DNA of 64,000 nt, from NCBI GenBank assembly GCA_030704615.1, contig CM060732.1:22506001-22570000 (forward strand), given 5' to 3'. Below the pieces are notes generated by a model that ran no database searches, was not told the DNA's origin, and worked only from the letters and a program-made list of their open reading frames with translations. Both the position numbers and the translations under genes were made by a program. Shown one piece after another: positions 108-49,140 of this stretch; within the stretch, counting starts at the first letter, position 1, and each line of letters opens with the position of its first letter. The stretch is from Takakia lepidozioides (taxonomy: Eukaryota; Plantae; Bryophyta).

Positions 108-485
108 GTGGCTATAGGCCCACATATGTGCAGGATTCCAGGATCCGGGTCGAAACATGTAGGGCCTACACTTCTTGCCAAGACGAATGTCTCGTTCTTT
201 GCGAGGGCCGACTTCATGACGAGCCCGGTGAAGGACTACTCCCTTCCTAGTTATGCAGCTAAACTCGCAAATACAACAATTAGACGATGTGAGAATCCCA
301 GTAAAGTAGAGCAGATTATGGAGAGGGCTAGGGAGGACAGAAGGATAAGGAAACAGTTGGCAGCAGCTGAGATAGGTAGACGGGTGCGAAAGTTCATATG
401 TGATTCAGCAGAAGAGAGCGATGCAGACAGGGAGGACGACGACCCAACGGAGGTGAGATGGTCGGTTCCGCAAGGGGAAGATGGG
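108..485 (+). pseudogene. 5' part of an acidic ORF of unknown function, interrupted by the retroelement; continues in frame at 11330-11476
   Basis: Removing 486-11329 (element plus one TGGG) restores ...PQGEDG-IFESLSNEQSAGQEKGNDGVEAEHD... in one frame to TAA at 11474-11476. Confidence 0.6.
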
Positions 486-570
486 TGTCGTGCGCATACA
501 TATCGCTACACAACTACATCGCTGTCCAAACCACACCACACATATATGCACAATAAAGTAGTCTAGCACA
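486..570. repeat. Short terminal repeat S, outer copy (85 bp)
   Basis: Identical by eye to 926-1010 (TGTCGTGCGCATAC...GTCTAGCACA). Confidence 0.95.
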
Positions 571-571
571 A

Positions 572-1010
572 TGATAGAAAGACTCTTTAACACACTGTTG
601 ACACAAAACATGGAAACCAAAATCATCACTCTTTGAAATAGAAGTCGAGCCAGGGGCACCCCAAGCTATGGGGACTCCACCCCACAACAACCTACACTCC
701 CATCATAAACACACACAGCTTCTAAACGCAGGAAGGAGCTCGGTCGCGCAGGCTCAACTCGAGAGAGATGAGCCGCGCGACTGTCGCTCTCGTGAAGATA
801 AGACAGACCAGGTGTCAAACTAAACTTGACACCTGATTTAACACTTGACCTAAATCCAAGTGTTAAATACAAATAACTAGTTTTATTCTAGCTGTTTTCA
901 CACTGTGCTTATTTAACTTGACAGCTGTCGTGCGCATACATATCGCTACACAACTACATCGCTGTCCAAACCACACCACACATATATGCACAATAAAGTA
1001 GTCTAGCACA
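572..1010 (-). repeat. Complete 439-bp LTR = L (572-923) + GC + S (926-1010)
   Basis: TG...CA ends; L identical by eye to 10974-11325; purine tract adjacent at 1011-1022 on the minus strand. Confidence 0.85.
920..929. other. Perfect 10-bp palindrome GACAGCTGTC; putative integrase attachment site
   Basis: Equals the element right end (GACA) + GC + the element left end (TGTC). Confidence 0.8.
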
Positions 1011-1022
1011 ATCGCCCCCCTA
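1011..1022 (-). other. Putative polypurine tract (TAGGGGGGCGAT on minus strand)
   Basis: G-run immediately upstream of the complete LTR in element orientation. Confidence 0.6.
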
Positions 1023-1270
1023 GCTGGTGGATAGGTCCCCCTACCTCCAGATAGCTACAAGATGTAATAGCCACAGCCGTACTAAGTCCTCTATCACTGT
1101 CTTTATCGAGCTCAAACTCTATCAACCAAGAGGCCGGGTACAAGAGTAGCCCCATCGTTAGTCGCCGTCTTGCAATCTATGAACTTGAGCCAAGATCTCG
1201 TGTGTTCAAGGTCTCCTAGTAGCTGGGCCTTGCATTTCTTGTTAGCCTCCCATGGTTGTATCCACTCCCA

Positions 1271-2562
1271 CTATCCAATGCAATGTGGACATAACCAATC
1301 CCCATCCGGAACCATCTCAAGAGGTGGAGTTAAGCATCCCATATGCCAACCTCTAGAGCACCGATCACATACCAGCATGGTGGCTGCCCCTTTAGCAGAC
1401 CCACACAACATGCACCTCAAACCTGCAGATACCACTGCCAAGTTTGGGTCAATCCTGCCATCGACATTCGGAAGGTGACATGGTGCACAATTACGCACAT
1501 GGTCCTTCCAAGTGATGCCATCCCGACCCTCCAAGACCAAGACGCCTGAGGGCAAGACCTCTCGAACCCTCAAAATAACACGTCCTGCAGTCACATCCAG
1601 GGTCGTAGGAGCAGTCTGCTGCAGATAGACATAGTCACCAGGGTTGAATCTCCGAACCCCAGGACGATAGCCCCCACCACGTATGGTAGCATACCTCAAC
1701 GTATCACGGTGTTGTGCAATGGCAAGGTTCTCGAAAGCCATAGGCATGACTCTCTTGAACAACTCTGCACGCTGCTCACATGCACGTGCCCACACGTCCG
1801 GATCGTCAAGGTTAAGAACTGTAACAGCTTCTCTGCGAATGGATGTAGGCAAATCCGGCTCTCGGCCAAAGAGAAGAAAGTATGGTGAGAAGGAGGCAAG
1901 TGATGCTTGCTTGCTGAACCTGTAGCCCATGGCTAACCAGGGTAACTGAAGGTCCCAATCTCCTAGGTGTCCCTTCTGCAAGCCATACTTGCGCAAACCC
2001 CTCTTTACTGTCTGAACAACTCTCTCTGCCAAGCCATCGGCTTCAGGATGATCCCGAGAAGTGGTGCGGTGGTCTATCAAGGCCTTGTCACACAAAGCCT
2101 GAAACTCCCCAAGAACTCTCTCCCTTGGTCCGTGAGTACCTCAGCTGGAGCACCGAATCGGCTAAGCACACAATCCAGGAATGCATACGCAGCTCCCTCA
2201 CTAGCCTTATCAGGCAATGGAACCAATTCAATCCACTTGGAGAAGTGCTCCACCATCACCAACACGTACTTGTTGTGGCGCATGGTCAGTGGCAACGGCC
2301 CTGCGAAGTCAAGACTCCACCTGTAGCCCAATCCCATGATCGGAAGAGGGTGCAATTGTGGAGTAGGGGCGTTGAATGAAGCATGCACCCTGTCACACAC
2401 CATGCACCTAGCCACAAAGTGTTGTACCTCTGTGTGCATACCACGCCACCAATATTGCCCCTGCAGTAGACTATGAGTGCGTCGCACCCCAAAATGCCCC
2501 AACTCCTCATGGGCATGTCGCACTAACCGTGCCCGATGTGTTGGGTGAGGCACAATCCTCAC
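1271..2562 (-). pseudogene. Gypsy-type DDE integrase (HHCC zinc finger, rve core) with C-terminal PHD finger; frameshift near 2100
   Basis: HEELGH...CMVC; WSLDFAGP, VLTDQGREF, HPEADGLAERVVQTVK; C4HC3 PHD CMLC...CDRC..GWHMGC..PPL..VP.GDWLCPHC at about 1274-1420. Confidence 0.93.
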
Positions 2563-2574
2563 TCGACCATCCGC

Positions 2575-3385
2575 ACTTGCCCGGATGTAACTTCAATCCG
2601 TGCGTCCTCAAGCGCTCAAATACCCCCTGAAGGTGTCTCTCATGCTCCTCCACCGTAGCACTAAAGATGATGATGTCATCTATGTAGCACCGAGCAAACT
2701 CCACCCCTGCTAGAATCCTGTCCATGACTCTTTGAAACTCAGCGGGAGCGTTTTTAAGCCCAAATGGTAAGAACCGCCACTGGTATAGGCAATCCTTCCC
2801 GTGCTCATTGATCCCCCAGAATGCCGTCTTTTGCTTATCCGCCTCCTTGATCGGCAACTGGTGATATCCGGATCGTAAATCCAACGTGCTAAAGACCTTG
2901 GAATGCCCAATGGCATCAAAGATCTCCTCTGGTGTTGGCATGGCATACCTATCGGACTTAGTCTGACGATTTACAGGCCGGTAATCACCGCACATACGTC
3001 TCTCCGTCCAATTGCCATAGACATCCTTCTTAGCTGGCATCACTGTGGCTGAAGCATACTCTCCACCAGAGAGCTCCACCAAACCTGCCTCCCAGAGATC
3101 TTGAGTCCTCATCTGAATCAAAGACCTCTCCATGTCACTGTATCTATAGGGTCTCCGAAAGATTGGCGTGTCAGTGGCCAACTCAATACGGATCTCTTGA
3201 CCCTTCAGTGCTCCCAAGTCCTTCAAACTGAAGGCAAAGCAATTCCTGTAAGCCCTCAGGAACCGCCGTATACGTCGTCTCTCTCCTCCGGTGACAATGG
3301 GTCCAATATCAGGCTCCCAATTGTCCTCCGTAACTGCAACCTTAAGTCCAGTGGGCTTAGAGGTAGAGGACGCGTCCCGTGGTTG
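2575..3385 (-). pseudogene. Gypsy-type reverse transcriptase, truncated after the palm (thumb and RNase H deleted)
   Basis: RMCGDYRPVN, FSTLDLRSGYHQ, LPFGLKNAPAEFQR, YIDDIIIFS, LKLHPGKC, then abuts the integrase N-terminus at about 2575. Confidence 0.93.
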
Positions 3386-6300
3386 CTATGCTGCAACCTC
3401 TTGAGCAGTACCCCCTTCCTGCTTAGTCAATGACAAGGCCTCATCCTGCCCCATCATCTCGTCATTGAGAACCTCCTCATCCCGAGAAGAATCCCCAACC
3501 TCATCCATCACAGCTGCCTTCGCTGCCAACTCCCTCTGAACCTCGAGCACCTCCCACATGTGCCATGGATGTCTACACCTCGTGGTCCTCACCGGCTCGC
3601 CCCCACTCGCTGCCTGTACCGTCTCGGTAGGCAGAGAGACCATCAAGGGAAGTGCACTCCGCACTCTACGTTGCTCAGCCATAGCCAAGCTGACAATCCA
3701 GGTCAAGCAATTGAGATCCATTGCTTGCCCCAACACCTGACGACGTGATGCCTCCGAAAGGGAAGGCACCGCCGTGGTCCCAGTGGAAAACCCCATAGCC
3801 CGCTCTCGCTCGTCGGCATTAGGCTCCACTAACTGCTGCAACTGAGCATCCCACAGGAGGCCAGGTCCACCATCCCGAAAAGCATGGGATCCTGGGAAGC
3901 TGAGCAGTGTAGGTAATGCTGCTCGTGGTTGACCCACTCTGTTGACCACTTCCAAAGGCGAACGGTCATCGTGTCTCACACGTTGAGATTGCCTTCCTGT
4001 GTCCAAAATGCCATCCACGGTGAGGTGTGCTGGCCGCTGCACCCCATCAAATGCACGCTTGAGCAGTGCGGGTGGCATCAAGTTAGTCCACCATAGTCGT
4101 GGACGATGAGCCCGTGACCCCAGTGCAGCTGCATCCAGCAATACTGCTGACCCAAGCCACGACCGGACTTGATGCACACTGGCCATCACCCTGGCCCGAG
4201 AATCACCCATCAGTGGCACATTCTCCAAGATGTATGCCGGAGATACAGCCTGATGAAGCTGCAAGTGGCGCAAAATCCGCACCATCTCCCAAAACAGACC
4301 CGTCCTCGAGTCTCGCAATCCATTGCCATGCCCGGCTGATGAATGCCCTTGGTAGGGCCAACCTGCCACTACCAGATCAATGGAGCCAACCCGCTCCAAA
4401 TCCTGCGCCCCCAGCAACGCAATGTCTGCTGGCAAGGCCTGCTGATATCCACGAACTGCAGACACCGGCAACAACTCAGGATGCTGCTGCACCATCTGAG
4501 CAACATGGCGCAGTGAGACGCGTCGTGCAGTCTCATCCCTCTCCACATACAGGTAACGTCGAACTCGTACACCTGCCTGCAGCACTGCAGCCAATCCAGT
4601 GCTGATCCCGCCAAATAAGTCCAGAAGGCATATGCCTTCATCCGGTCGCTGCCACACAAGAGGTGTGGTGTCCAATGGCGACAACTGAGGTGGCCCTGGT
4701 ACAATCACCGCACTCTCCTCCTCTCCTGACGGTACAAAAGCTTCTAACCAAGCTTGTTGCACCCGTCCATCAGCAGCGTGCTGCAAATCCTTGCTCGTAC
4801 CCCACAACGGAGTGTGAGCAACCATGGCAGGCAACTCCGCCGTACCATGCATGTCATCCTGCTCTGCTAGAGGTGGCACATCCTCTGCATGGGCATTGCC
4901 TTCCAGCAACTCTCCAGGCCAGCTGACTGCAGCTGTGAAGGCGGCTAGTGTTGGCATCTTGCCCCGCTGAGCAGCTGCAATACCCCCAAGGAATGTCACA
5001 GGGAGCTGTGCACGACGACCATCCCCTGACTGCCATCCAGGCCTGTAGGATGCTGACTCCTCCCAGAAATCCAGGGTGAAGCCCATGGGGTATAACACTG
5101 CCCCACCAACGAGGACATCGTAAGAGACCGCGTCTGTCACAATGGCCTTGGCTCGCATCACTGAGCCATCTACAGGATGATCCGGCTGCAGTCTAATAGC
5201 CAACTGATGCCGTGTCATGCCGCGAGCCTGCTCTGATCCTCCCAGAGATGTCTGTATCTGGAAAGGACAAGGCTCCATATCCGCCTCCATGAGGCCCAAA
5301 CCTGCAATAGCAGCTCTGCCCAACATCAGTGGCTGAGCTCCTGAGTCCAACAAGACCCGCAGTGGCCGGTACTGCTTGCCTGCCGGTCCACTCAAAGTGA
5401 AAATGCCTCCCTGGTTGTCTAACAAGACAACTCCAGGTGTCACCATGGCGCGCTCAAAGGCTGGCCTAGCTGGCAGCTCCGTCAATCTGGCAGCTGCAGC
5501 TTGCCAGGGCGCTGCCGTGGCAGTCTTGACCCTCAAATCCGAGGATCCCTCTGTCACTACACCTTTTACTAACTCCGCAGAAGATGAAGTGACCTCTCCA
5601 CTCTCGCAGAGTGTTGCTGCTAGTCTGAACACTGCAGCTGGTCTCACTCCCGGCGTCGCAATCATGGTCGCCGAGAACAGTGGGGCTTGACACACAGAGG
5701 TGGCTGCTCCCAATAACACACCGGCTGCACTAGCCTTGGTAGTAGGTGTCAGTGCTGCACGGGTAGCTCTTCCCAATGGCATAGTAACCTCCGCCTCGGT
5801 AACAGTCGGGCGAGAACTAGGTGCCATGGATGGCGTTGACACTGTCTCCGCCAAGGTGAATGACTGAGGCAGCCTTGCCTGACGGCTTGCCTCCCCACGT
5901 TGTGGATCCAACTCCACCTCTGCACCTCGTGGCTCAGGAACTCGTGTTGCTCCTCGAGTCACGGCTGCAGCAGACTCCACCTGCTCTAATGGTAGTGCTG
6001 CTCCGCACATGAATCCCATTCCGCCCATATCTCCTCCCTCAGGAGCAGGAGGTGGGCCATCCCGCCTGGGAGCCGGTACCGCCTGAGCTATAGCCATGGC
6101 AGCGAGCCTCTGCTCTAGCTGCTGAAGCCGATTGGCCATGCCTTGGTCAACACCCTGACCTCCGCGTCCTTGGCCATGTGGAGGTTGCCCTTGGCCTGCA
6201 CCTCGTGCCCGACCACCTCGTCCTCTTTGGGCTGGTACACCTCGCCCCCGGCCACCATTGTTCCCTTGGAACTGGCCTGGGCGCAACTCAGGATGCAAGT

Positions 6301-6502
6301 CATAACACTGGGCATCTCCATGCCCATACTTGCCACAATGCCCATACTTGCCACAATGCCCACACTGCAACTGTGCAGGCTGTGCTTGTGCCGGCCTTCT
6401 GCCACTCTCTGGGCAATCTCTCTTGACATGGGGTCCTCCACATGTCCAACATATCACCCCTGGTTGCTGTTGGCCTGCAAAAGATGCCACGGGCCTCTGC
6501 AC
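3386..6502 (-). CDS. Polyprotein segment: CCHC zinc knuckles, aspartic protease, C5 cytosine DNA methyltransferase domain
   Basis: CWTCGGPHVKRDC and CGHCGKYGH..C knuckles; VLLDSGAQ and YDVLVG protease motifs; MTase motifs listed in the next feature. Its TAG stop is in frame with RT. Confidence 0.9.
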   Translation of the reverse strand: MQRPVASFAGQQQPGVICWTCGGPHVKRDCPESGRRPAQAQPAQLQCGHCGKYGHCGKYGHGDAQCYDLHPELRPGQFQGNNGGRGRGVPAQRGRGGRARGAGQGQPPHGQGRGGQGVDQGMANRLQQLEQRLAAMAIAQAVPAPRRDGPPPAPEGGDMGGMGFMCGAALPLEQVESAAAVTRGATRVPEPRGAEVELDPQRGEASRQARLPQSFTLAETVSTPSMAPSSRPTVTEAEVTMPLGRATRAALTPTTKASAAGVLLGAATSVCQAPLFSATMIATPGVRPAAVFRLAATLCESGEVTSSSAELVKGVVTEGSSDLRVKTATAAPWQAAAARLTELPARPAFERAMVTPGVVLLDNQGGIFTLSGPAGKQYRPLRVLLDSGAQPLMLGRAAIAGLGLMEADMEPCPFQIQTSLGGSEQARGMTRHQLAIRLQPDHPVDGSVMRAKAIVTDAVSYDVLVGGAVLYPMGFTLDFWEESASYRPGWQSGDGRRAQLPVTFLGGIAAAQRGKMPTLAAFTAAVSWPGELLEGNAHAEDVPPLAEQDDMHGTAELPAMVAHTPLWGTSKDLQHAADGRVQQAWLEAFVPSGEEESAVIVPGPPQLSPLDTTPLVWQRPDEGICLLDLFGGISTGLAAVLQAGVRVRRYLYVERDETARRVSLRHVAQMVQQHPELLPVSAVRGYQQALPADIALLGAQDLERVGSIDLVVAGWPYQGHSSAGHGNGLRDSRTGLFWEMVRILRHLQLHQAVSPAYILENVPLMGDSRARVMASVHQVRSWLGSAVLLDAAALGSRAHRPRLWWTNLMPPALLKRAFDGVQRPAHLTVDGILDTGRQSQRVRHDDRSPLEVVNRVGQPRAALPTLLSFPGSHAFRDGGPGLLWDAQLQQLVEPNADERERAMGFSTGTTAVPSLSEASRRQVLGQAMDLNCLTWIVSLAMAEQRRVRSALPLMVSLPTETVQAASGGEPVRTTRCRHPWHMWEVLEVQRELAAKAAVMDEVGDSSRDEEVLNDEMMGQDEALSLTKQEGGTAQEVAA
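3690..4640 (-). other. C5 cytosine methyltransferase domain (DNMT3/Dcm-like fold); catalytic Cys reads Tyr in this copy
   Basis: Motif I LLDLFGGI, II YVERD, III ADI, IV DLVVAGWP[Y]QGHS, RTGLFWE, VI YILENV, VIII AHRPRLWWTN, IX ERERAMGF, X RRQVLGQAM, all in canonical order. Confidence 0.9.
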
Positions 6503-7610
6503 CTGAGGTCCCCTGTAAGCTCCATGGACTTGGGCTGGGCAACCTTGCCCCCCTGACCACGCTGTTGGGCAGTCCCTTGTGCTTGTGGGCTGACAACTGT
6601 GCCCCGTACAGGCATGTCCTTACCAAATCCAATTGTAACAACTCGCTCCTCCACCATGTTGAGCTCAATCCGCTCAGCCAGCAGAAACACATCTGCTAAT
6701 GTGGGTTGGGCTGCTTGTAACAGGGTTGCATCTCGCACCCTTCTCTTGAGCTCCTTGTCCAGAATTCCATACCAAAACTGGATTGCCTGAGCTTCAGTAA
6801 CCCCTTGGGTCACACTTATCAAGCGCCTCATACGAGTGTACGCCTCTCGCAGGCTCTCACTGGGTTTGCGCTGGAAGTCTTGCAAACTTCGCAGCTTCTC
6901 TGTCCGTACACCTTGGTAGTTCCTCCGCAACTCCTGGAAGAACTCCACCACCGGGTTGAATCTAGGCACATGTGTTGTAGCTGTGGCAGGAGGAGTAGTA
7001 GCACCTTCTGAACTGGTACCACCTGCAGAAGTACCAGCACTACTGCTCCACTACTAGTGCTGGCAGTGGGAGCTATTGGTACTGATGCAGCTACTGGTCG
7101 CGTCATGCCTCGAGTAATGGAGATGTAGTCAGGTGACCAATACATCCTCCACTCCTCAATCTCTGCTTCATGTCCTCGCCTGAACTCGTGGTAATCGTCC
7201 ATAGGCGGGCCTTCCAAATGCTGGAACAGTCCCTTCCACGCCATGAATGGGGTGAATAGATGTGGATTGCGCATCTGCTGCAAATCACACCAGCTGTCGA
7301 ACTCCTGGATAAAGTCATCCAACTCGATTGTGCCCACAGCTCCAGAGTACCTACGAGGCCCCTTGGTAGCTCCATACATCTCCTCCATGTCGTCCCACAA
7401 CAATGGCGAATGAAAGTGCACACCTGTTGATGAAGCCTCCGAGCCTGTGTCTGACTCTACAGTAATTGAGGGTGGCGGTGAAGGTGGTCTAAACCGAATA
7501 CCTCGTCTTGTGAACCCACTCTCACTGTTACTGCCTGTAGCCGTACTCCCCTCAAAACCCTTGGGTAACTCCGTAATGACACTCACAATGTGCACCTCCT
7601 CCAGGGACAC
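6454..7610 (-). pseudogene. Gag (capsid-like) region, frameshifted
   Basis: ELDDFIQEFDSWCD and FFQELRRNY...LQDFQRKPSESLREAYTRMRRL (major homology region-like) in two overlapping ORFs directly upstream of the knuckles. Confidence 0.75.
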
Positions 7611-8122
7611 TATAAGGCTCTAGTACTAATCTAATAGTGACACGGGTGGGCACCTGTTGCAGTCTAAGGGTCATATCCCAATGGCTCAGGGCACCTGCAC
7701 CTGCATCCACCGCAAGAACTCCTATGGTTGGCTGGTCATCAACCCAGCCTCACCATAGAAGAAACACTGGTGGTCTTGCTGGTCATCACTCCAGCCTCAC
7801 CACCGACAGCATACTCTAGGATTGACCGGTGATCAAATCCGGCCTAATCCCTATGAAAGCAAGCGCCCACACAAAACCAACATGGCGCACAGTCAAGCAT
7901 GCAGGTGTTGGGGGGGATCCAAACACAAGAAATCAAAACATCAACACCCCCACACCAAAATCCAGCAGCAACGCTGATCCTGCAGAATATCCCAGCCCAA
8001 AACCCCGGACTGACTGGCCTCCACCAAGAGAGGCTTTGGCAACTACAAGTATAAGGTAATGAAAATAGTACAGAGATGGAGGGGAAGAATAGAAGCCCGA
8101 CCAAGCAAGATCTAATCCTGAT

Positions 8123-8872
8123 CTATGCTATCAACTGCCAGACTTCTCTCAAAGTGCCTCGCTCTGCATGATGGTAAGGTGTAGGAGGTATATCTATGTC
8201 CAGAAACCTGCCACTAACCTTGTCCCAAGCTACAGTAGCTCGCTCTAACCAACCCTCCTCCTCTTTCTGCCAGGTAGAGACAAAGCAATACTCCCCTATC
8301 TCCCGCTCACTGAACACTAAAGAAAACAAAGGTAGGGTCTGATAGTCTCTCAACTCGAAAGCTTTGAGACGGTTGCGGGTGTCCTCATTGCGAATGACTG
8401 CATCTCCTTCACACACAACAAACATGTCATTGCTGATGAACCCCCGCTCGTGGTTGCCCTGTGCAGAGCGTATCCGGCTGCAACCATGTCTGATTGCACA
8501 AACTTGTGTAGCTCCTGCTCCTCTGCTCCAGTACACCACGGCCTTGTGGCTGAACACCTTGGTCCCCGGGGCTGTCTTTGGCTGTGTTCCAAGCCTAGCT
8601 TCCACCCACTTTGGTATTTCACCTACAGCTGCAGAACTGCTGGCTCCAACAGAGTTCTGACTGTCCAAGGCGATATTGAGGCCCTCAATGCCAACTACAG
8701 CAGTCTGTTGTCTACTGCTAATGCCTGACTCCCAGTATGCAATCAACTCGTCCAACTGTTCTCCACTCAAATCAGTCTGAGTTCCTTGGGAAACATAGAT
8801 CCTGTCCCCTTGTGTGCACAGGCTAAGAGAAGAGACCTGCCCTTCAATTACGTCCTCATTTCCCCCAGCCAT
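8123..8872 (-). CDS. 249-aa accessory ORF of the retroelement, unknown function
   Basis: Intact ATG-to-stop ORF, sense to gag-pol, inside the element; no motif recognised. Confidence 0.55.
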   Translation of the reverse strand: MAGGNEDVIEGQVSSLSLCTQGDRIYVSQGTQTDLSGEQLDELIAYWESGISSRQQTAVVGIEGLNIALDSQNSVGASSSAAVGEIPKWVEARLGTQPKTAPGTKVFSHKAVVYWSRGAGATQVCAIRHGCSRIRSAQGNHERGFISNDMFVVCEGDAVIRNEDTRNRLKAFELRDYQTLPLFSLVFSEREIGEYCFVSTWQKEEEGWLERATVAWDKVSGRFLDIDIPPTPYHHAERGTLREVWQLIA

Positions 8873-9249
8873 ACAAGGAGTACATCCACAGGTTTGTCTC
8901 TCATATAGGCCAGCACAGGTTCTAGAAACAAGATTGTGGATATTTTATGGCACACTCCCACTCTAAAAATTCCATAGATCTTTAGCAGAGTCCCAAAAAC
9001 AGAAACCAGGTCTAGGTAGGTAGATTTCCCCTTTCTGCAGCTATTCCCCCAAAAACTGAGTCAAACAGAGTCCATTTGACAAAGATATGACCAACCAGGC
9101 TCTTTAAACATTTAAATTAGATCAAAAAGGCTTTGTTTTTTTTTTTTTAACACCAAAACGCTTTTGTCATTATAACTGCTCCCAAGTCACCTACGAGTTC
9201 CCAACACATCCAGGTAGTTCGTCCAGGTAGGGGCGATTTCAAGAGCAGA

Positions 9250-10437
9250 TCAAGAGATGCACTGCGCAACACCCTCATGGCTTATGGACAGGCGGCCTGC
9301 AATCGAACGATTCGTGGATGGTTGCTGGACTTGCACAACACATCTGCCACATCGAAACCACAGCTTCACTTCACCAACATTCAGCACAACAGGAGCAGAG
9401 CAGAGCATACAAGAGCTTGGCCGTTGATTGCGACACCTGTTGTGTGTGAAGTTTGAGAATTGAGCTGCCCTTTTTTTTTTGATGTCTGTGGTTCTACTGT
9501 GGTGTTGTACGTGTGCTCCTTGGACCTGTTGGACCTCCCGCAGACGTGATAACTTTCTTTTCTTCTTATCCTTGAACCCTCCTGAGGCCCTATACATTCT
9601 TGATTTGGCCATTTTGGAAGGAGGCCATTGGCCTTTCTTCCTTAACTTGCGCTTGCGCACCAGCCTCTTCCTTCGAAGCTCCAATCGTTTAGCCTTCTTC
9701 TTTAACAATTATGCTTTTGACTTGAGGGAAACTATGGCTGGGATGGTGACCTCAGGAACAATCTCGACCTCTGACTCTGGGGCATCTCCAGCAGCCCTGG
9801 CTACCACATTCCTCTCCGTTGTGGCCTTCCACGTCAAGGACGCACCGGCTGCGACCTGCCCACTGTAATCTCCAAGTTCTTTTCTATACTTCAAACCCAC
9901 TCTAAATCCAGAAAACAGCCCGCAAGCAGGTCTCCACTGCGAGCTTGCCGAGGCAGCAGATGGTGAGAGAGACAAGGACACATTGGAGAAGGTCGGCACA
10001 AGGGCCTGGGAAAGAAGGAACGCAAAGGTTGCAGAGTTCTCTGGTACACCAAAGCCAAGTTCTGAAGGCGGGATTCCCCCTATTGCCCAGGCAGGGCACA
10101 AGCTGGGCATTTACGGAAACCCCTCCGAGAAGCAGATGAGGCTCTCGGCAGATTGCCCTGCAGGTTTTGCTTGTAAATCAGTCTTGTTAGCCAGCGATTG
10201 TAGGGCCTGCACCTGAAGCTCCGGGGACATCAATTAATCAACGATCTCCTCCAGCAAAATGGGAGTGTCACAGGTTTCTTCCATCAACATTCACTACTTC
10301 ATGTGCTTGGCTATTTGGGCCTGTTTTTCTTTTTCCCGCCCTAACTTGCTTAAACGCTCCAGTGTGTGCTTTTGTACCCGAGCCCTTCTTAGCTCGCAGT
10401 GTCCTTCATAGAGCCGTCCTCATCGACAACTGTCCAT
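9250..10437 (-). pseudogene. Possible decayed accessory ORF (about 395 codons, six in-frame stops), basic region and C-terminal CxxC...CxxC
   Basis: ORFs 9709-10110 and 9250-9708 are one frame that extends to ATG 10437; K/R-rich stretch; CMLC..RCGRC. Confidence 0.35.
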
Positions 10438-10837
10438 ATTGCTTTAACAAGGTATGGATGTGTCACCATTGGACTGACCAGGTATAGCAAGGCTGCAGAA
10501 CAATCTGCCTCTCACAGTGCTCCTGTACAATTGCAGTTATAGCGACGCACCGAGTGCCCAACTTGCAGTAGTAATGCAACCGCAAGCGCTTGTTCCCCTG
10601 TCACAACCACACTCTTGCATGCACGCTGCACACAGGCTTCCACCTCCGGAGAAGAAGTCCAGGGACAGAGTTGCGGTTGTCAGCAGCTACCAACAGACAC
10701 AGTTTTCCTTACATTTGCGCATCATCCTGCTGCTCCACCATGATATCTCCTCACTGACCAAAACGAAGGCTGCTTCCATGCAGTGTAGCTCCGTCCTGCC
10801 CGGCGGCCTTATGCCAGAACCAACGCTGATCGAAACC

Positions 10838-10871
<34 letters not shown>

Positions 10872-10959
10872 AAAGCTTCTTAAACTAAGCACTACTCTCA
10901 CACAGGTAATCATACAAGTGCTAACCCTCAACTCCTACCTTGCACTCACAGGTAAGAGG

Positions 10960-10974
10960 TCATCTCTCTCGAGT
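10960..10974 (-). other. Primer-binding-site position complementary to the element's own LTR (11159-11173); putative self-priming site
   Basis: TCATCTCTCTCGAGT (10960-10974) is the exact reverse complement of ACTCGAGAGAGATGA (11159-11173); no TGG tRNA-type PBS. Confidence 0.7.
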
Positions 10975-11325
10975 GATAGAAAGACTCTTTAACACACTGT
11001 TGACACAAAACATGGAAACCAAAATCATCACTCTTTGAAATAGAAGTCGAGCCAGGGGCACCCCAAGCTATGGGGACTCCACCCCACAACAACCTACACT
11101 CCCATCATAAACACACACAGCTTCTAAACGCAGGAAGGAGCTCGGTCGCGCAGGCTCAACTCGAGAGAGATGAGCCGCGCGACTGTCGCTCTCGTGAAGA
11201 TAAGACAGACCAGGTGTCAAACTAAACTTGACACCTGATTTAACACTTGACCTAAATCCAAGTGTTAAATACAAATAACTAGTTTTATTCTAGCTGTTTT
11301 CACACTGTGCTTATTTAACTTGACA
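10974..11325 (-). repeat. Long terminal repeat L (352 bp), 5' end of element
   Basis: Identical by eye to 572-923; ends TGACA followed by TGGG. Confidence 0.95.
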
Positions 11326-11581
11326 TGGGATTTTCGAAAGCCTGTCCAACGAACAGTCCGCTGGACAGGAGAAAGGCAATGACGGGGTGGAAGCGGAGCA
11401 TGATAGTCAAGGACAGACGACGATAGTGATGATTTTCAAGATTAGTAGAATTTTAATGAACTCTCTGTACATTTAAATTTTCTTCCAGAGTATATAAAGC
11501 AAATTCTCCCCGTCCTTCATGTCCCATCTCCCATGTGCTTCTCAACGACACCATCGTCCAAACCACGTCCCTCCCAAAATC

Positions 11582-12620
11582 GGAAATGCGGCACCGCATT
11601 TCCATGTCGGAACGGAAATGTGGCAACTGCAAAAACCTCGTTTGGAAATGCGGCAAGAACAATTTTCTGTTTCATGGTTTGGACATCATAAACTGTTCGG
11701 CCGAACGGTAATGCGGTGCCGCATTTCCGTTTTTGACACGGCAATTTTGCCGATTGTCAACTCCTTCCATGGAGGTAAATGGAAATGTCACCCCTCATGC
11801 GGAGGTCGTACACATTATTTACATGGCGGACATGTAAATGCGATACCGCATTTCCATTTTGGAAATGGACGTTTTTTCCAACTCCAGACCCATGGACGGA
11901 AATGCGGCACCGCATTCCATTGTCCAATAAGAAATTATGATGACGTACTGGAAATGCGGCGCCGCATTTCCAGAACGGACATCGGTGTTTGTCCAATTCC
12001 AGACCCTTGGACGGAAATGCGGCACCGCATTCCATTGTCCAATAAGAAATTTTGATGATGTACATGGAAATGCGGCACCGCATTCCATTGTCCAATACGA
12101 AATTTTGATGACGGACATGGAAATGCGGTGCCGCATTTCCAGAACGGACATCTCTGATTGTCCAATTCCAGACCCTTCGACCGAAATGCGGCACCGCATT
12201 CCATTGTCCAATACGAAATTTTGATGACGGACATGGAAATGCGGTGCCGCATTTCTAGAACGGACATCTCCAATTCCAGACCCTTCGACGAAAATGCGGC
12301 ACCGCATTCCATCGTGCTGGACGGAAATGCGGCACCACATTCCATTGTCCAATAAGAAATTTTGATGACGGAAATGGAAATGCGGGGGGGGGGTGGCCGC
12401 ATTCCAGAACGGACATGGAAATGCATTGGCGATGGACATGTTTGGACAATTCAAGGTCCAATATGGAAATGCGGTGCCGCATTTCCAATTCGAAGTATGG
12501 TAATGCCATTTCCAGAAATGAAATGCGGAACAGAATTTCCGTTACGACCACAAGGGAGGAAAGGGAGCTGCCAGAAATCGCTGCATGGAGAGAAATGAAA
12601 TGCGGTGCCGCATTTCCGTG
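11582..12620. repeat. Array of about 17 palindromes GGAAATGCGG-NN-CCGCATTTCC, mostly 53 or 63 bp apart
   Basis: Motif positions include 11899, 11951, 12014, 12067, 12120, 12183, 12236. Confidence 0.9.
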
Positions 12621-13058
12621 CTTGGGCATGTACATGTTTCCTTTTACTCATACATGGATTTCCTTCACCTCAGGACTCTGAATCGCTGACTCTGATATAT
12701 TATGTGGACAGACAAATTGTAGACAAGACCACAAATTGTAAACAGGGGCCAATACAGCAGTTCTTGAACACAATGAAACACAACAACAGAAGAAGTAAGG
12801 TACGATGGGTTGTTTTATTGATCGAACATGGTGTCTCACATTTAGAACTCCAGACAAATCTAAAGCCCTTCCGCCTTCTACATGGGCGTCACCAAGTCGA
12901 CGGAACTCGATAGCCCTCAAAAACAAGCCTATATTGACCCGACACATCCAGGTATAAACTGCAAACTCGGCGTTCGGTCTGCCCTGGTGGAGCTGACGAC
13001 AATGTCATGCCCAGCAATGCTAGCCACCATCATACATTGCAAGCTCCACCGTGGGGCC

Positions 13059-17709: not shown

Positions 17710-18339
17710 TCAAGTGTTCTACCATACAGTCTAAGAATTTCACAACGAAAATGAGGGAGGGTTTCGGTGCTCCATCAGCTGCACGCATCCCGATAGCACG
17801 GAGCTCTAACTGTCGGCTGGGTTGCCTGCGTTGCCTGCTGCTGCGAGATGACCATCTCCTCTTGAAGACGCATCTGCTTCCTCCCCTTCGGCATTGGCCT
17901 TCGCCCGAAGTACAACTTGCGGAGCTTGCGACGATGTCTCTTCGCTGCTGCAGGACCTTCCTCCCTCTCAGGTTGGAGCATAAGAAAAACACAGACTTGG
18001 AAAAGGGGCGAAGAGTGCAAATGGAAAGGGCGCGAGAGGGGTGAATGAGTAGACACGACAAAAGAAGATGAAACGGCGATGATGCACCGCTTGGGTTCGA
18101 AAGGCTGGGATGGAAGTGTCTCCTCGTGGACTATGCGTCATTACAAAATTCGAATCGTCAAAGGTACGCCAGCCGTCCGAAAAACAAACATCATTAAGCA
18201 ACGGTCGGGCCACGCCGCCTCTTGCCACTTCAGACAGCAAGAGCGCAGACATGAAAATGTGGTGCCGCAATTCCGTTGGTCCACGTGTTCACATATCATG
18301 GCATTTCCGTCCCAGCGTTTGATGAGTTAGAGTGAAAAC

Positions 18340-19270
18340 GCAAATGCGGCGCCGCATTTCCGTTAAGTAGCATCCCAAAGGTACACATACCTTACTTGTT
18401 GGACAGAAATGCGGCACCGCATTTCCGTTCAACAAGTAAGGTATGTGAAAGTGGAACGGAAATGCGGTACCGCATTTCCATTCTGATTGAAAATCATGAA
18501 CCACTGGAACTGAAATGCGGCACCGCATTTCCGTTCGAGTCGCACCTTCCAACATTCCAGAACGAAAATGCGGCGTCGCGTTTCCGTTTTGTATCACAGG
18601 CATGGAGCTGTGGGACGGAAATGCGGCACCGCATTTCCGTCCGGGGGAGACCTTCATACTCTCCAGAACGGAAATGCGGTACCGCATTTCCGTTCAACAA
18701 GTAAGGTATGTGAAAGTGGAACGGAAATGCGGTACCGCATTTTCGTTCTGATTGAAAATCATCAACCACTGGAACTGAAATGCGGCACCACATTTCCGTC
18801 CGAGTCGCACCTTCCGACATTCCAGAACGGAAATGCGGCGCCGCACTTCCGTTTTGGAGAGTATAATGGTTTCCCCCGGACGGAAATGATGTGCCGCATT
18901 TCCGTCGCACTACTGCATGCCTGAGATTCGGAAATGCGGAACCTCATTTCCGTCCACTAGATCCCATTGAAAGAGACCAGACGGAAATGCGGCACCACAT
19001 TTCCGTTCCTGCCTATCCAAAGTGTCCCAGTCGATGAAAATGCGCTGTTGCTATTATTTTCTACCATGTGTTCCTAGTCCCATTCGACCTAAATGCGATA
19101 CCGCATTTCCGTTCCACCATGGGCCTACTTTTACAGTGGACTGAAATGTGGTACCGCATTTCCGTTGCACCAGTATTTTGGTTTCCCTGTTGACGGAAAT
19201 GCGGTGCCGCATTTCCGATCACAATCAAGGAGAGGATGATGTCGAACTGGGATGCGGGACCGCATTCCCA
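18340..19270. repeat. Array of about 18 palindromes (ACGGAAATGCGG-NN-CCGCATTTCCGT) with a strict 53-bp period and variable spacers
   Basis: Equivalent positions 18406, 18459, 18512, 18565, 18618, 18671, 18724, 18777, 18830, 18883, (18931), 18984, 19037, 19090, 19143, 19196, 19249. Confidence 0.92.
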
Positions 19271-19553
19271 TTCAGCCATGTGCAATGGGTTGCATTGTTT
19301 CGAAAGAACACAATTGCGGCCTGTCTTAATGAGCACATCTTGGTTGTCTAACCGTTTTAACTAACAGTCCTAGCACTTGTCAGTGCGAACGTTCATGTCT
19401 GCACCGCGAATACTGGTTGATCCACCCTCAGGAGAAACTGTCAAGAGATGTTATTTCGTCGCCGAATCGGCCATCATTGTCATACTTAGTGGATATGGAA
19501 TCACACCTCCCACCTTCATGCATGTAGCTTGAAACCATATTTGCCACTTCAAT

Positions 19554-20170
19554 GTGATCATCGATGGACTCCGTAGATCCCGTGAGCCTTGGTCTGTCGC
19601 TATAGTGAACATCGCACTTGCCAACTTCGTGCGGTGTTCGATGGCTCCGAATTCCTACGCTATAGTTTGCTGTCCTCCGCAACTTGGGAGAGCCTGGATC
19701 CCAAACGAGGGAGGACTTTGCAGAGTGACTGAAACTTACCTTTGTTTCAAATTCAAGCTCAAACCGGGTGTCGTGCGCATACGTATCGCTACACAACTAG
19801 GATATGACCCTCCGAGTTTGTTTTTGAAGCCACTGATGAAGGTCTGGCAAAGATTTGGTGGTCAGTACAATAGGAGTAACATTCTGCTCATTGACGACAC
19901 GGCCACAAAGTGTGTATTGAACCCGCCCGATTCGTGTCTTCTTCTCAAACCGTTCAAGTCATGGAGGCTGATTGTTGTTATCTTCATAAGGTTCTTCAGG
20001 ACTATTTGCTTGAAATGAGGAAACATCCCTTTGTTTCAAGCTATCTCAGGAAAAAGATGATAGGATATAAGCCTTATCCCGATGTTTCCAATGATCCTAA
20101 GTTTAGGCCACTCTTGGATTACATTGACGATTCTAATTTAACGAATCTCAGATATGATGCTTCAAAATAA
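19554..20170 (+). pseudogene. FCP1/SCP (NIF, HAD) phosphatase-like fragment, disrupted
   Basis: FKLKPG; FLKPLMKVW...YNRSNILLIDDTATKCVLNPPDS typical of the NIF C-terminal half; middle replaced by a retroelement end. Confidence 0.6.
19769..19799. mobile_element. 31-bp remnant of the S terminus of the split-LTR retroelement family
   Basis: TGTCGTGCGCATACGTATCGCTACACAACTA matches 486-516 at 30/31, starts at the same TG and is also preceded by GGG. Confidence 0.85.
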
Positions 20171-25746: not shown

Positions 25747-28700
25747 TTATTGGGTGCGATGCAGCCTGGCTATAAGTTCCTTCCTTAGAATCTTGCCAGC
25801 AGCTGATTTGGGGATGGCGTCAATAAATATCACTTTCCGCACTTTCTTGTATGGGGCAACCTGAACATTCGCAAGTAACCTCGAAAATCAATGATCCTGA
25901 AGAAAGTAATTGGAAACTTCATGGAAGGCTTTAGACTAAAATACCAATTTAGTAAATTCCCGTGCGGAAACTGAGGTTTCAGAAATTTGCAAGCGGTACA
26001 GAGCCGACATGACACAGGTTCCAAGAAGACAACCCTGCAATTGTGCCGACTATCAGTTAGCAATAGAGTGAATGCCAAGAGACATGAAGAATTACCTGTT
26101 TTCCCACAAATTCAATAACGTTAGCTTCAGATAGATCGGAGTCCTCTCGTCTCACGACACATGCTACTGGGAGCTCCCCTGCCTCCTCATCGGGAAGCCT
26201 GAGATACAAAAGCAGAATACACGGATGGAAGTTACATACAGTATTCATGAAAGTTATCTGTTCATATTCTTAGATCCGCGCCTCATTCATGGGCTGCAAC
26301 TTCCACCAGAAAGGCGATTGTGGTACCAACGCGTTCGAATTTTAGATGCTGATAGCTAAGGTTTACATTCCGATTGAGATTTGACATGATGGAGGTCAGG
26401 AAAAACTAAACAATGTCGAGAGTGGATTCGCTGAAAATCTGAGGAAAGTGTGAGCATGAAATATTTATCAAAACGTGAATTTGAGGGTACACCATCCCGC
26501 AATCCCATCAACGTTCATGCCAATCTACGTGTACGGCTGGTTGGAACTCACGGAATGACTGCGACATCCAAAATTTTGGGGTGGGTCAGCATGACTGCTT
26601 CGAGCTCTCCTGGTGCTACCTGTTCCCAGGAAAAATCGAAAATCGGATGTCAAACTCGGAGAACAAATGTTAGACCAAATTATCGGCGTAAGAAGTAACC
26701 AGTGATTGTTTTGCTTGGCAGCTTACCTGCACGAGGCCTTCACCCTTAGAAAATCACTCGAGCAAAAGATTTATTGTCACCTCTGGTTTTGTTTCCTCAT
26801 GTTTTCTTCCATTTTGTCCCATAAGCTCTATCAGCTTTCCGCGGACGTTATAAAGTACCATTTCTTTTCATTTCCCGAGATCTCAAAGTTCTACCGTGAG
26901 TCAGCGTTTCGTCACTTATCAACGTCGTGCACAAGATTGCTCAAAGGCGAAATGTAACAATTTGCAGGTCAACTTAAAGCATGAAACAGATTTGATCTTG
27001 AGGAATTGGTACCTGATGGGCCTTGTACTTGATGATTTCTTTGAGGCGGTCAACAATGAAGAGATAGCCATTGTTGTCTACATAACCAAGGTCCCCAGTG
27101 TGCAGCCAGCCTTGTTTGTCCTTTGCTTCGGCCGTTGCTTCAGGGTTGTCGAGATAGCCTACGCCACAACGATCACAAAGGCCAAGATCAGTGGGGCCAA
27201 AAAAAATGTTCTGACTGACATATCTATCAATCGCTGATCGGTTATCTCATCTGCATCACAAGATCTTGACGTAGAAACTCACCAGTCATAACCTGGGGCC
27301 CACGGATCCAAATCTCGCCAGATTCCATAGGAGGAAGTGCCTTTCCTGTTCCTAATTCGGAGATGCGGGCCTCTATACCATCCGTCATCACGCCTACAGA
27401 TCCCCACTGCAGTCGCTCATTTGCCAGCACACTGAATGAAATCAGTGGACACTCCGTCATGCCATATCCCTGCACCCAAGACGATTGAAATGTCTGAGAA
27501 TTGATGTACGCCTGCGAACTGTACATAAAAAAAAGGTTCCAGAAACGTGACATAGAGCTAGATGATATTCAGTCCGGCATCCATTGAAAAGGGATTCATG
27601 AAGAGGAAGCACCTGGCGTATTGTGCACTGAGGAAACATAGCTGCGCATGCCTGCAGGGTATCCTCACGCAGGGATGCTGCTCCTGAGATCCGTCAAAAC
27701 CAATCCTGAGTGAGTCACGCGACTTTTTATGACCGCGGTGCTTGAGAACACTAAGGAGCACATCGCATCAGTAGTGTCTGATCCAATTAGCCACATGTGG
27801 GGTAAATCCCAAGAATTGGTTTATCAGTGTGTGGATGACTACGTAGGTCCTATAATATAACTTTCGCACAAATAAACTGGAGAAAGCGTCATCAATCTTG
27901 CACTAACAGATCACCTCTGTAGTGTGCGTAAATCAATATCTAACGTATACCTGTTGCAATGATACGCATTGAACTCAGGTCGTATTTTTCGACCTCCGCG
28001 CTCTTCACCAGCGAAACAATGATAGGTGGCACAAGTGTCACCACAGTAATTTTGTAGGTCTCAATATAGTGGAGCATTTGTTGAAGAGAGTATCTAGACA
28101 TGGTCACTACAGCTCCACCTCTCTCAAGAGTTGCCAACATCACAATGCCAATTCCATACACATGGTACAGAGGGATGACGGCCAGACACACATCCATCTC
28201 GCTGGTGGATGCCCCTGGCTCTAGAGTGTTGTATGCCGTGACGGCAGACATAAAGTTTCTGTGAGTCAGTTCAACCCCTTTGCTCAGGCCTGTGGTACCC
28301 GATGAAAAGAGCAATGTGCATGTGTCGTCAGCCCGTGTTTCAGGATACACAACGCTATTTTTACTCGCGTTCTGAGCATCGCAGAGTTCAGAGAAGAGGG
28401 TAATTGAAGAAGACTCGGAGATCTTGCTTCTTGCCGATTCACCACCTGCATGTGCAACAAATAATTATCAGATCTATCAACAACAGGCGGTAGCTCTTTG
28501 GGGTGCTCAAGTGACACCATAAGTTACGCCTGCTTGCTTCGGCAGGAGTCTTCCTCTCCTCTCATTGGTACTTAATAGAAAACAATTTAACCTGTATGTT
28601 CTTGAAAAGTCTATCTAGGCCTGACAACTTCTTTCTCTAGATTAAACCAAGGGAATTGGGATACATTTTGTTTTTCCCAGTAGTGATTGCTTAACTAGTT

Positions 28701-32300: not shown

Positions 32301-33048
32301 CTAGGGCTACATTTGACTTCCTGAGCTCAGGCATGCACTTTGGTGCTGTTTGGTAATATTCGTGTCCATCTGAATAAATCAATAGATACAGAAATCCCAA
32401 GAAGTTTTGCATTTTGCAAAGGACTGTTTGGTAGAGTACTGAACAAAAATTTCTGTCGATTGCACTGTGGTACTCTTCAGTATACCAGTTCATGGACACA
32501 GAAATCTTCAAATTTATGCAGTTTTTTAAGGACTGTTTGGTAGAGTGAACAGGAGTTGGCTGCCCTGATCTGTACACTATACACTTAAGGACTTCATATG
32601 AATGATTTGATAGTCTCAAGGGACTTTAGAGCTCGGTATCTAGAATAAATCAGTTGAGCATCATGTTGTGCGAATGTGGAAATCAATGCAGAGCTGAAAC
32701 CTTGAGCTCGGACATTCTGTTAAATCAATCTAACCCATTATCGATTGGCAACAGGGACAGTCACTTGATTATATGCATTCTCGAATCATCATTGCATGTA
32801 TGCGACCTTACCCCAACTTAACTCTAGATACATATCTCTAGAGACCTTCTGATCTCTTTTGCGCTCTCCTAATTCGTTCCAGCTTTCGAGAAGATAAAGT
32901 CCGCACTTCATACCTAAGTTTTAATGAACACGCCTAATTTTTTAATGTTCCTGAGCCAATTTGACGGATACATTTGATCTCGTTACATTCTCAACTGGAC
33001 ATCGTCAGATCAAAAACTTGGAAAGTTGAAAAAGTATGATTATCTCGA

Positions 33049-34437
33049 CTAGGCAATGGCTACACTCCTCAGAAGAGACACCTCCATGTTGAAGCCTGGA
33101 CCCATGCCTATCAGAAAACCCCATTCGCAGCCGCCGCCTGTCGTAGATGCACCCAAACGTTTGGAGCGCTTCCTCATCTCATCCATGACAAACAAGCAAG
33201 TCGGGCTGGCCATAATGCCAAAGTTGTCCAAAATGTCCCAGCTGGGTTGCAACTTCTCTTTTGGTAAGCCGAATGTTTCGGCCACCACCTCCAGAATTTT
33301 GTAGGCACCCGGATGCACAACCCAGAACATGTCATTCCATTCAGGGGACCCAACTAATGCTCGTCCTTCAGACACTAGTTCCTCCAAGTGTTTAATAATC
33401 AACTTGGGCACTTCGTCCTTCTGCAGAGTCTGGAGCAAACCTGCTTCAGTGATGTCTCCGAAAATGAGGTGCTCACTGTTTGGCACTACCATCTGTATCG
33501 ACCAGTATGACTCGAATATAGGGCGCTCCACTCCTGGAAGTGGGTCAGAACCCACGACAAGGGCACACGCGCCATCTGCCAATGTCACATGAGCCTGAAA
33601 ACCATCAATCTTGTAGAGCGTATCTTCGATTGGAGCTCTGAAGTTCATCACAGTGGTAGCTTCCACGGCAATCACCAGCACACGCGCGCCCTTAGCGCTC
33701 GCGGCGAGGTTTCTCGCCACTCGCATGACCGCACCCCCACCCCAGCAGCCCGCCTGGTACATACACACGCGCTGCACAGTCGGCCGTAGCCCGAGCAACC
33801 TGGCGAGCTTGAGGTCAGCCCCGGGAATGCACGTCACGCTTGTCGTGACCATAACCATATGAGTGATATCTGTCAAGGCGCCCCCCCCCATTCCTCAATT
33901 GCTTTGAGTGCTGCCTCGTGGGCAAGCTCAGGAACCACAACGGTCACTATATCTGTGCGCGCCTTCAAAGAGTTGTCCCAGTAGGTGGTCAGCTCTGGAT
34001 GGGCTTTCAGGATTTCCTCTGTCAGGAACGTATGCCTTTTGCTGATGCAAGAAGAATCGCCTGCAATGCAAATAAAGAAGAATTTTCAGCGGATCGCTCT
34101 TAGGTCTACCATAATCTCGCATGTATATCTCTAGAAACCAACCCAAGGGAAACAACACATCTTAGAGAGTTCCAGGTTAATTAGCCATCTACAGTCCAGC
34201 ATCGAATGGGTACTCACACATGCGTTTGAACTTCGCTTTTAGGGAAGTATTGTCGCTGCAATCGCACAATTCGAAGAGTTTGTCATGGTAAGTGGCTTGC
34301 TCTATGATTGTCGGGGGCTTGGCGGTTCCGATCCCCAGAACTGAAGCGGGTCCCTCTGCTCGTGGCACCATCCTTGCGACCGGGACATACTGGTGGGCGA
34401 CAACTCCATTCGCCCCATTCTCTGCTACCGGGGCCAT
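33049..34437 (-). pseudogene. Type III polyketide synthase (chalcone synthase superfamily), 2 exons (34437-34218, 34060-33049), frameshift in G9 run at 33881-33889, catalytic Asn reads Ile
   Basis: RAEGPASVLGIGTA, conserved intron in the Cys codon, MYQAGCWGG, WVVHPG, FGIMASPT, GMGPGF. Confidence 0.9.
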
Positions 34438-48278: not shown

Positions 48279-48279
48279 A

Positions 48280-49140
48280 CACCGTACACCACTTTCAGTG
48301 ACATCTGCAGAAAAAACCAAAAAAAAAAATCCTAAAAAAACCCTAAAAATCCTTAAAAATACCCCAAAAAGGGAAAAACAAAACCCCTGAACATGGGTGT
48401 GCAACACCGCCACACCTCTTTCAGTGGCACCGCACACTAAATAGAAAACCCTAAAAATCCTTTAAAAATCCTTTAAAAAAAAATACCTAAAAAAAACTCT
48501 TGAAAAGGGGTGTGCGGCACTACACACAAAACAAAACCCTGAAAAAACCACAAAAAAAAAACAAAAATCTTTAAACGATGCCGCTTTCAGTGGCATCGCA
48601 CACTAAAAACAAAACCCTATAAAAACCCTAAAACCCCTTTAAAAACCATAAAAAAAAAAAAAAAACAAAAAAACAAAAACTCCTGAAAAGGAGTATGCGG
48701 TGCCGCACACCTATTTCAGTGGCACCGCTCACTAGAAAACCCTAAACCCTAAATCCTAAAAAACTCCTTAAAACCCTTAAAAAAACCTAAAAAACCCTTA
48801 AAACCCTAAGAAATCCCCAATAAAAAACAAAATCCTGAAAAGGGGTGTGCGGCACTGCACGCCTCTTTCAATGACATCGCACATTGCAAAAACCCTAAGT
48901 AAACCCTAGGAACCCTAAAAAAACCCTTACAACCCCCAAAAACTCATCATCTGAAAATGGTGTGCGGCACCGCACACCACTTTCAGTAGAACCTGCGGGG
49001 AAAATAAAACCCCCCTAAGAACTCCCTATAAAAACCGTAAAAAAACCCTAAAAACATGAAAAAACAAGAAAAAAATTCAGTGGCATCTACGAGGAAAAAA
49101 ACCCTAAAACCCTAATGAAACCCTAAAGAAACACTAATTA
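48280..49140. repeat. A-rich degenerate repeat region with AAACCCTAA motifs and palindromes GGTGTGCGG-CA-CCGCACACC
   Basis: Best palindrome at 48959-48978; decayed copies near 48395, 48510, 48690, 48845. Confidence 0.7.

Follow-up and report, generated by a model that had tools for sequence, protein, structure and literature searches.

A Gypsy retrotransposon of Takakia lepidozioides with ends at the two halves of a palindrome inside its own repeat

The repeat structure of DIRS elements combined with Gypsy domains was presented for KnitGypsy-Dnmt3 of Klebsormidium nitens (legend of Fig. 4c in de Mendoza et al. 2018, PMC5890265), which the text of that paper reports from K. nitens only. Streptophyte Gypsy-DNMT3 elements appear again in a 2026 preprint (10.64898/2026.05.21.726589), where the passages that mention them give no repeat structure. 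We found the KnitGypsy name in no other paper, and a search for split or permuted long terminal repeats (LTRs) together with Gypsy gave nothing further; the search covered open-access full text, with subscription papers and Repbase lying outside it. The integrases of foamy virus and HIV-1 were reported to cleave palindromic LTR-LTR junctions (PMC1180852, PMC1905944). The Gypsy elements Tf1/Sushi and Tcn1 are described as self-priming from their own LTR, with ordinary LTRs and with chromodomains (PMC6317226). The survey in that paper is described as taking only elements with two LTRs, TG/CA ends and target-site duplications (TSDs), therefore it would likely miss elements of the kind presented here. 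We describe a Gypsy element located at positions 486-11325, minus strand, of a 64,000-nucleotide (nt) stretch of Takakia lepidozioides DNA (assembly GCA_030704615.1, contig CM060732.1, positions 22,506,001 to 22,570,000). This whole stretch is referred to below as the window.

The window copy has the layout A-internal-B-GC-A-B, where the repeats A and B are also called L and S. On the minus strand we observed, in this order, flank-CCCA, A1, a primer site, the internal region, a polypurine tract (PPT), B1, GC, A2, B2 and CCCA-flank. The two copies of A (572-923 and 10974-11325) were identical at 352 of 352 positions. The two copies of B (486-572 and 926-1012) were identical at 87 of 87, the exact match taking in one shared junction base. 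The features are listed below, each with its basis in brackets.

482-485, plus strand: TSD TGGG, left copy (repeat comparison; empty sites carry one copy).
486-571, minus strand: B2 (S), terminal copy of repeat B, with the element end ...CACGACA (identical to B1; heterogeneous flanks at the same end in other contigs).
569-573, minus strand: A2/B2 junction, the A end defined by the primer site joined to the B start defined by the PPT (spanned by a related contig, record 5 of the public set X1 introduced below; variable in relatives).
572-923, minus strand: A2 (L), internal copy of repeat A (352/352 identical to A1).
920-929, no strand: intact internal palindrome GACA-GC-TGTC, putative integrase attachment (att) site (core kept in relatives down to 52% integrase identity).
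926-1011, minus strand: B1 (S), the internal B copy, which immediately follows the PPT (repeat comparison; contig ends).
1012-1023, minus strand: PPT, containing the G-run 1015-1020 (sequence; same position in relatives).
10960-10973, minus strand: self-priming site, 14 nt complementary to positions 153-166 of A (11160-11173) (same arrangement in relatives).
10974-11325, minus strand: A1 (L), with the element start TGTCA (repeat comparison).
11326-11329, plus strand: TSD TGGG, right copy (repeat comparison).
19769-19799, minus strand: 31 nt left from a second insertion into another reading frame, its B terminus being exactly that of the element.

The palindrome GACAGCTGTC occurs once in the window, at 920-929, and the end-to-end LTR junction reads C569-A570-A571-T572-G573. 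Empty paralogous sites with a single TGGG were identified in public contigs running from behind 485 into the flank at 11330 (seven contigs of set X2 and three of X5). When the element was cut out together with one TGGG, the flanking reading frame gained approximately 50 codons; when 572-11325 was cut out instead, the frame was not extended. An earlier first-pass annotation of this DNA had claimed the layout, the TGGG duplication, the LTR-LTR junction and the retained palindrome, and all of these are borne out by the repeat identity and the empty sites. It was also right that the target frame is restored on removal and that 572-11325, the boundaries expected from ordinary LTR finders, are wrong. 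Priming by transfer RNA was rejected in favor of the self-complementary site, because of its 14-nt match to the element's own A repeat. Two complete terminal LTRs next to a TSD, as in a canonical Ty3/Gypsy element, were not present, and the ends fall inside the repeat that the primer site and the PPT define. The window element is a Gypsy by its proteins and is not a canonical LTR element by its structure.

We compared the element with related metagenome loci, taking the best 80 of 511, with integrase identity of 52-84%, and two repeat families were mapped among them. A terminal B plus flank was available at 50 of the 80 loci, which represent 42 distinct insertions. The remaining 30 were excluded since the contig ended before or within the repeats, no family-1 or family-2 repeat was matched, the locus belonged to a decayed third family (L034, L043, L044, L054, L055) or it was a fold-back (L005, L009). 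In all 42 distinct insertions the 3' end lay at the CAYGACA half of the internal palindrome. The terminal tetranucleotide was GACA in 37, AACA in 3, GATA in 1 and TACA in 1; for L071 we set the end 15 nt early, on the first unit of a tandem pair of CACGACA. Ordinary LTRs with TSDs elsewhere in the family, which would have made the window copy a one-off, were thus not what we found, and the observation is confirmed as real and family-wide.

The long form, with B-GC-A-B at its 3' end, was present in 20 of the 42 insertions (L030 and L050 are partly rearranged). The other 22 had a short form, A-internal-B, in which B is followed directly by flank; L018 and L042 are ambiguous here, their flank beginning with GC. 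The first-pass annotation had expected the long order in most copies, which held for the 20 and failed for the 22. Both ends were available for ten elements, five long and five short, and all of them begin with TGTCATG or a one-base variant. As anticipated, 4-bp TSDs prevailed: seven of the ten were perfect, two had one mismatch and one element (L058) had none, the chance of a perfect 4-bp TSD being approximately 0.006 per match.

Relatives with integrase identity as low as 52-53% share the core GACA-NN-TGTC with the window, and it was identified in two further families (L020, L061). Its centre is always 2 nt long, mostly GC or a transition variant. At the PPT side the LTR of relatives starts with GTTGTG or ATACATG, with no conserved TG, so that the complete TG..CA LTR proposed at first does not hold as a family trait. 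A self-complementary primer site of 9-17 nt was detected in 9 of 13 A1 rows of the relatives. B of family 2 ends in two tandem CACGACA units; L071 (7207-7221) stops at the first of them and B1 of L073 (2940-3100) lacks one, and either unit may act as a half-site in this family. In L005 (3245-3878; the same insertion as L009), B1-GC-A2 is followed by inverted A positions 1-178 ending in CATGACA and then by flank. The starting point of this inverted A is the self-priming site, a pattern that would result if a long self-primer had been copied back during plus-strand synthesis. The 3' end of the element, too, is in this way formed by an A start.

The A2/B2 junction varied between relatives: it was flush, 2 nt shorter, kept one base of the PPT, contained a filler or carried a deletion. 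Most junctions were within 0-3 nt of flush, with fillers or deletions in L011, L050, L067/L078 and L070/L072. In the tree of family 2 (11 copies) both ends were whole in 6, 2 nt shorter in 3, with a PPT base kept in 1 and deleted in 1. These classes were scattered among sister copies, L051 and L076 differing with support of 100/100. B1 and B2 of one element were more alike than B copies of different elements in family 2 (n = 11, permutation p ~ 1e-5), and we found no fixed differences between the B1 and B2 copies. Judging from these sequences, the A/B junction looks newly made in each copy. An A/G difference at the junction in family 1 was considered as a sign of fresh joining and rejected, as L007, L014 and L025 are one insertion in three spellings. 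The short form, the junction variation between sister copies and the absence of a mirror form, discussed below, had not been foreseen in the first-pass annotation.

Five public contig sets were compared with the repeats of the window; X1, X2 and X4 come from one sample, possibly the source of the window. In the window's organism, contigs departing at exactly 926 into mixed flanks were detected in X1 (42 contigs), X4 (32) and X5 (2), with agreement of 0.37, 0.39 and 0.67, respectively, and these counts exclude contigs that read through the internal palindrome. Beyond the opposite end of B, 11 and 9 contigs run into an A-like start, which indicates that the A/B junction is present in other subfamilies. 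Record 4 of X1 and record 10 of X4 have the order flank-B-PPT, as the short form would give. The run X7, from organism B, contributed one contig with the PPT side only, uninformative on the ends. We did not take sums of contig depth as copy numbers. In IMG/VR the 14-nt att pattern gave 78 matches, which were treated as chance, and the protein scan of that database revealed no relatives of the element.

The proteins encoded by the window copy are listed below, with Pfam matches and expectation values (E).

1274-2140, minus strand: C-terminal part of the integrase core with the third catalytic residue, and a C-terminal PHD finger (PF00628, E 6e-11; 535 homologs).
2080-2592, minus strand: integrase zinc-binding domain and core with the first two aspartates, the frame breaking before the remainder (PF17921, E 6e-16; PF00665, E 1e-11).
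2573-3385, minus strand: reverse transcriptase (RT), shortened, RNase H missing in the window copy (PF00078, E 3e-28; best solved match Ty3 RT, E 4e-33).
3389-6619, minus strand: open reading frame with a Cys/His-rich gag tail, a protease-like LLDSG motif (about 5339-5353) and a DNMT3-like cytosine methylase (about 4076-4633) (PF00145, E 2e-9).
6457-7619, minus strand: gag in two overlapping frames, 6831-7619 and 6457-7050 (PF03732, E 6e-4, below cut-off; conserved in family-1 relatives).
8126-8944, minus strand: 273-codon open frame (no Pfam match; unmatched in ten two-ended relatives).

The Gypsy order gag, protease, RT, RNase H, integrase was found, with RNase H taken from relatives (L010, L032, L064, L072) and the protease called by the LLDSG motif only. 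The best match of the integrase core of L032 was Ty3. The integrase is followed C-terminally by a PHD finger, and a Pfam scan of the window element and of some relatives gave no chromodomain match after the integrase. No tyrosine recombinase was matched by any of 72 frames of at least 95 amino acids from four elements (the window element, L032, L064 and L074), in agreement with the DDE integrase called at first. The best solved matches of the methylase were DNMT3A (E 6e-9) and DNMT3B, ahead of DRM2. The nearest named homologs of the integrase-PHD region come from Calypogeia fissa and Marchantia (approximately 80%), Sphagnum fallax and Klebsormidium nitens (52%; P0108), which points to a bryophyte as the likely host. 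The 5' region of the element (8126-10216) is long and holds the 273-codon sense frame and short antisense frames; its frames gave no Pfam match and no match in the ten two-ended relatives.

The window copy is defective. Its RT runs straight into the integrase N-terminus without RNase H, the integrase and gag sequences are each divided between two frames as assembled, a stop precedes RT and the position of the catalytic cysteine of the methylase is substituted. Since the repeats are identical while the interior is broken, this suggests a recent insertion made in trans.

Our reading, to which we assign a probability of roughly 0.6, is that in this Gypsy of KnitGypsy-Dnmt3 type, with ends at the halves of an internal palindrome and a 4-bp TSD, the DDE integrase would cut the palindrome on end-joined (circular) cDNA and not the cDNA ends. 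Reverse transcription, as the primer site and the PPT suggest, would be self-primed and otherwise ordinary, giving [B-GC-A]-internal-[B-GC-A]. The junction variation points to error-prone joining of the two cDNA ends, and part of the molecules would close as 1-LTR circles. Ordinary strand transfer would not produce B2, because it is the primer site that determines where the cDNA ends on the right. Its origin would therefore require joining of the right to the left cDNA end, and a variable junction is what end joining would leave.

The ends themselves suggest that the integrase would cut after CA on each strand of GACA^GC^TGTC, leaving two CA-3' ends with GC as a 2-nt 5' overhang. Processed retroviral ends are likewise CA-3' with a 2-nt 5' overhang. 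Insertion produces the 4-bp TSD and the loss of the central GC, which fits cuts after CA with such an overhang and subsequent repair, and repair would strip the GC at each inserted end. The long form A-internal-B-GC-A-B would result if a 2-LTR circle were cut in its left LTR; no other form would retain an A copy on the 3' side for use in the following strand transfer. The short form A-internal-B may arise from a 1-LTR circle, from cutting at both sites or from later B-by-B recombination. Since the mirror form is absent, unbiased cutting of the 2-LTR circle is excluded and the left site would have to be strongly preferred. In the plus-strand transfer model the left LTR is double-stranded earlier during reverse transcription, and our guess is that this order would account for the preference.

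We lean, with more reserve, to a wider interpretation. It supposes a streptophyte Gypsy lineage in which the ends of reverse transcription are separate from the ends used by the integrase, with an obligate cut, sequence-specific and restriction-like, at a dedicated internal att palindrome, 1-LTR and 2-LTR circles as substrates and convergence with DIRS/Ngaro. The element's own methylase might shield the intact chromosomal palindrome, which is speculation.

The alternative that survives best is that cutting comes first and joining later, which we consider unlikely. The integrase would cut the left site of linear cDNA and insert both cut ends, and host repair would join the free ends in the chromosome, with no free circle; cutting of both internal sites of the linear cDNA would give the short form. 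The same long and short products, the TSD and the variable junction are expected from this route, and the 22 of 42 short forms are explained without circles. However, every insertion of the long form would open a break in the chromosome, and its repair would have to keep both pieces of the element; most junctions lie 0-3 nt from flush, though a few carry fillers or deletions. The missing mirror form is explained no better than by cutting of a circle.

Still less probable, in our opinion, is a templated route like that of Ngaro/PAT, in which the RNA would extend into B2, the A/B junction would be inherited and B-GC-A would be rebuilt from the internal copy, a DDE integrase acting in place of the recombinase. 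Split-repeat elements of the DIRS group share the repeat order of our element, as drawn from the legends of Fig. 1e and 4c of PMC5890265, and the mirror form would be less likely if only the newly built site were presented. On the other hand, the repeats are bounded by a primer site and a PPT of the ordinary kind, the junction classes are scattered among sister copies and B1 and B2 show no fixed differences. A one-off rearrangement, an assembly artefact or a tyrosine recombinase acting in trans is very improbable and largely refuted: although the window copy is defective and an assembler might in principle have collapsed its identical repeats, the same ends were found in 42 of 42 distinct relatives with 4-bp TSDs in 9 of 10 (2 with one mismatch), junction and end contigs are present in independent public assemblies, no recombinase was identified in four elements and random 4-bp duplications would not be expected from recombinase elements.

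Several points weigh against cutting of the palindrome on end-joined cDNA. The circle, the transcript end and the cleavage are deduced from sequence. The mirror form (A-B-GC-A-internal-B) is absent, B-GC being present in 0 of 13 5' flanks (11 distinct, 5 of them short forms seen at both ends). L058 has no TSD, and L020 and L061 carry the palindrome with no B2 visible within the 661 and 1361 nt available. The likeness of B1 and B2 within one element was not significant in family 1 (n = 7, p = 0.06). The tree used for the junctions comprises 11 rows, and mutation after insertion could account for some of the differences at the junction. At 923, the A terminus, the contig rows listed for the window's organism show no loose end; upstream of 914 the sequence of most copies departs from that of the window copy. 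The integrase of the window copy is itself broken, hence this copy was presumably moved in trans.

The 31-nt remnant at 19769-19799 together with 2 nt makes a 33-nt in-frame insertion in an open frame (19533-20015) that has no Pfam match. Arrays of one GGAAATGCGG-type repeat (11561-12624 and 18249-19276) are located close to the two insertions of the window, which perhaps reflects the same host element or type of chromatin. Elsewhere in the window we identified an AMP-binding-enzyme exon (27943-28464), a plant DDE transposase (40510-41166; PF04827) and two Copia-type elements on opposite strands (54775-57699 and 58440-62169). A chalcone-synthase-like gene (32424-33894; PF02797, PF00195) has an inverted copy of its region (91-99%) approximately 30 kb away, at 63041-64000. 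At 42522-48285 a gag-protease region of a second Gypsy forms a large inverted duplication (86-91%) on both sides of an RT/integrase stretch, and at 48320-49131 there is a degenerate, A-rich, CCCTAAA-like array that resembles telomere repeats.

Whether LTR circles are true integration precursors is an old question of retrovirology, for which support has so far come mainly from cleavage assays. The natural family described here appears to rely on an att site within its LTR, and its defined substrate of 10-14 bp makes this directly testable. If the reading is true, 1-LTR and 2-LTR circles, dead ends for other retroelements, become substrates of insertion, and an integrase that cuts and inserts any circle with a short palindrome would be useful as a tool. 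Programs that recognize LTR elements by two terminal LTRs with a TSD next to them miss such elements or place their boundaries wrongly, above all the repeat-less short form (22 of 42), therefore the share of such elements in bryophyte genomes is probably undercounted. Within the open-access literature searched, the conserved internal att site, the 4-bp TSD, the short form, the variable junction and the left-site bias are undescribed, and the layout was noted once before.

In summary, the element resembles KnitGypsy-Dnmt3 in both of its features, a Gypsy Pol with a DNMT3-related methylase in the polyprotein and A-coding-B-A-B repeats, as far as these are given in PMC5890265. Kinship was judged from these features and from the 52% identity of the K. 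nitens protein to the integrase-PHD region. The first-pass annotation knew of no such Gypsy; the layout is in print in the legend of Fig. 4c of that paper, and the mechanism is not given there. The text of the paper is without termini, TSD, internal palindrome, short form or integration mechanism, and we observed the type in land plants, with homologs from Calypogeia, Marchantia and Sphagnum. With Tf1/Sushi and Tcn1, compared by features, the element shares a primer site complementary to its own LTR and not to a tRNA; those elements have ordinary LTRs and a chromodomain, whereas here there are a PHD finger and a methylase. Ngaro and PAT of the DIRS group have the same A-internal-B-A-B layout, and their internal B/A junction matches the joined ends. 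They use a tyrosine recombinase, in contrast to the DDE integrase, Ty3-like RT, primer site, PPT, random 4-bp TSD and loss of the central 2 nt seen here. Foamy virus and HIV-1 offer a DDE integrase that is reported to cut a palindrome internally to give processed ends, which for our element is suggested by the sequence. In those viruses, as described, joining of the cDNA ends is what creates the palindrome, and ordinary LTRs are retained in the provirus; in the element presented here the palindrome lies inside the LTR, apart from the cDNA ends, and thus every insertion is permuted.

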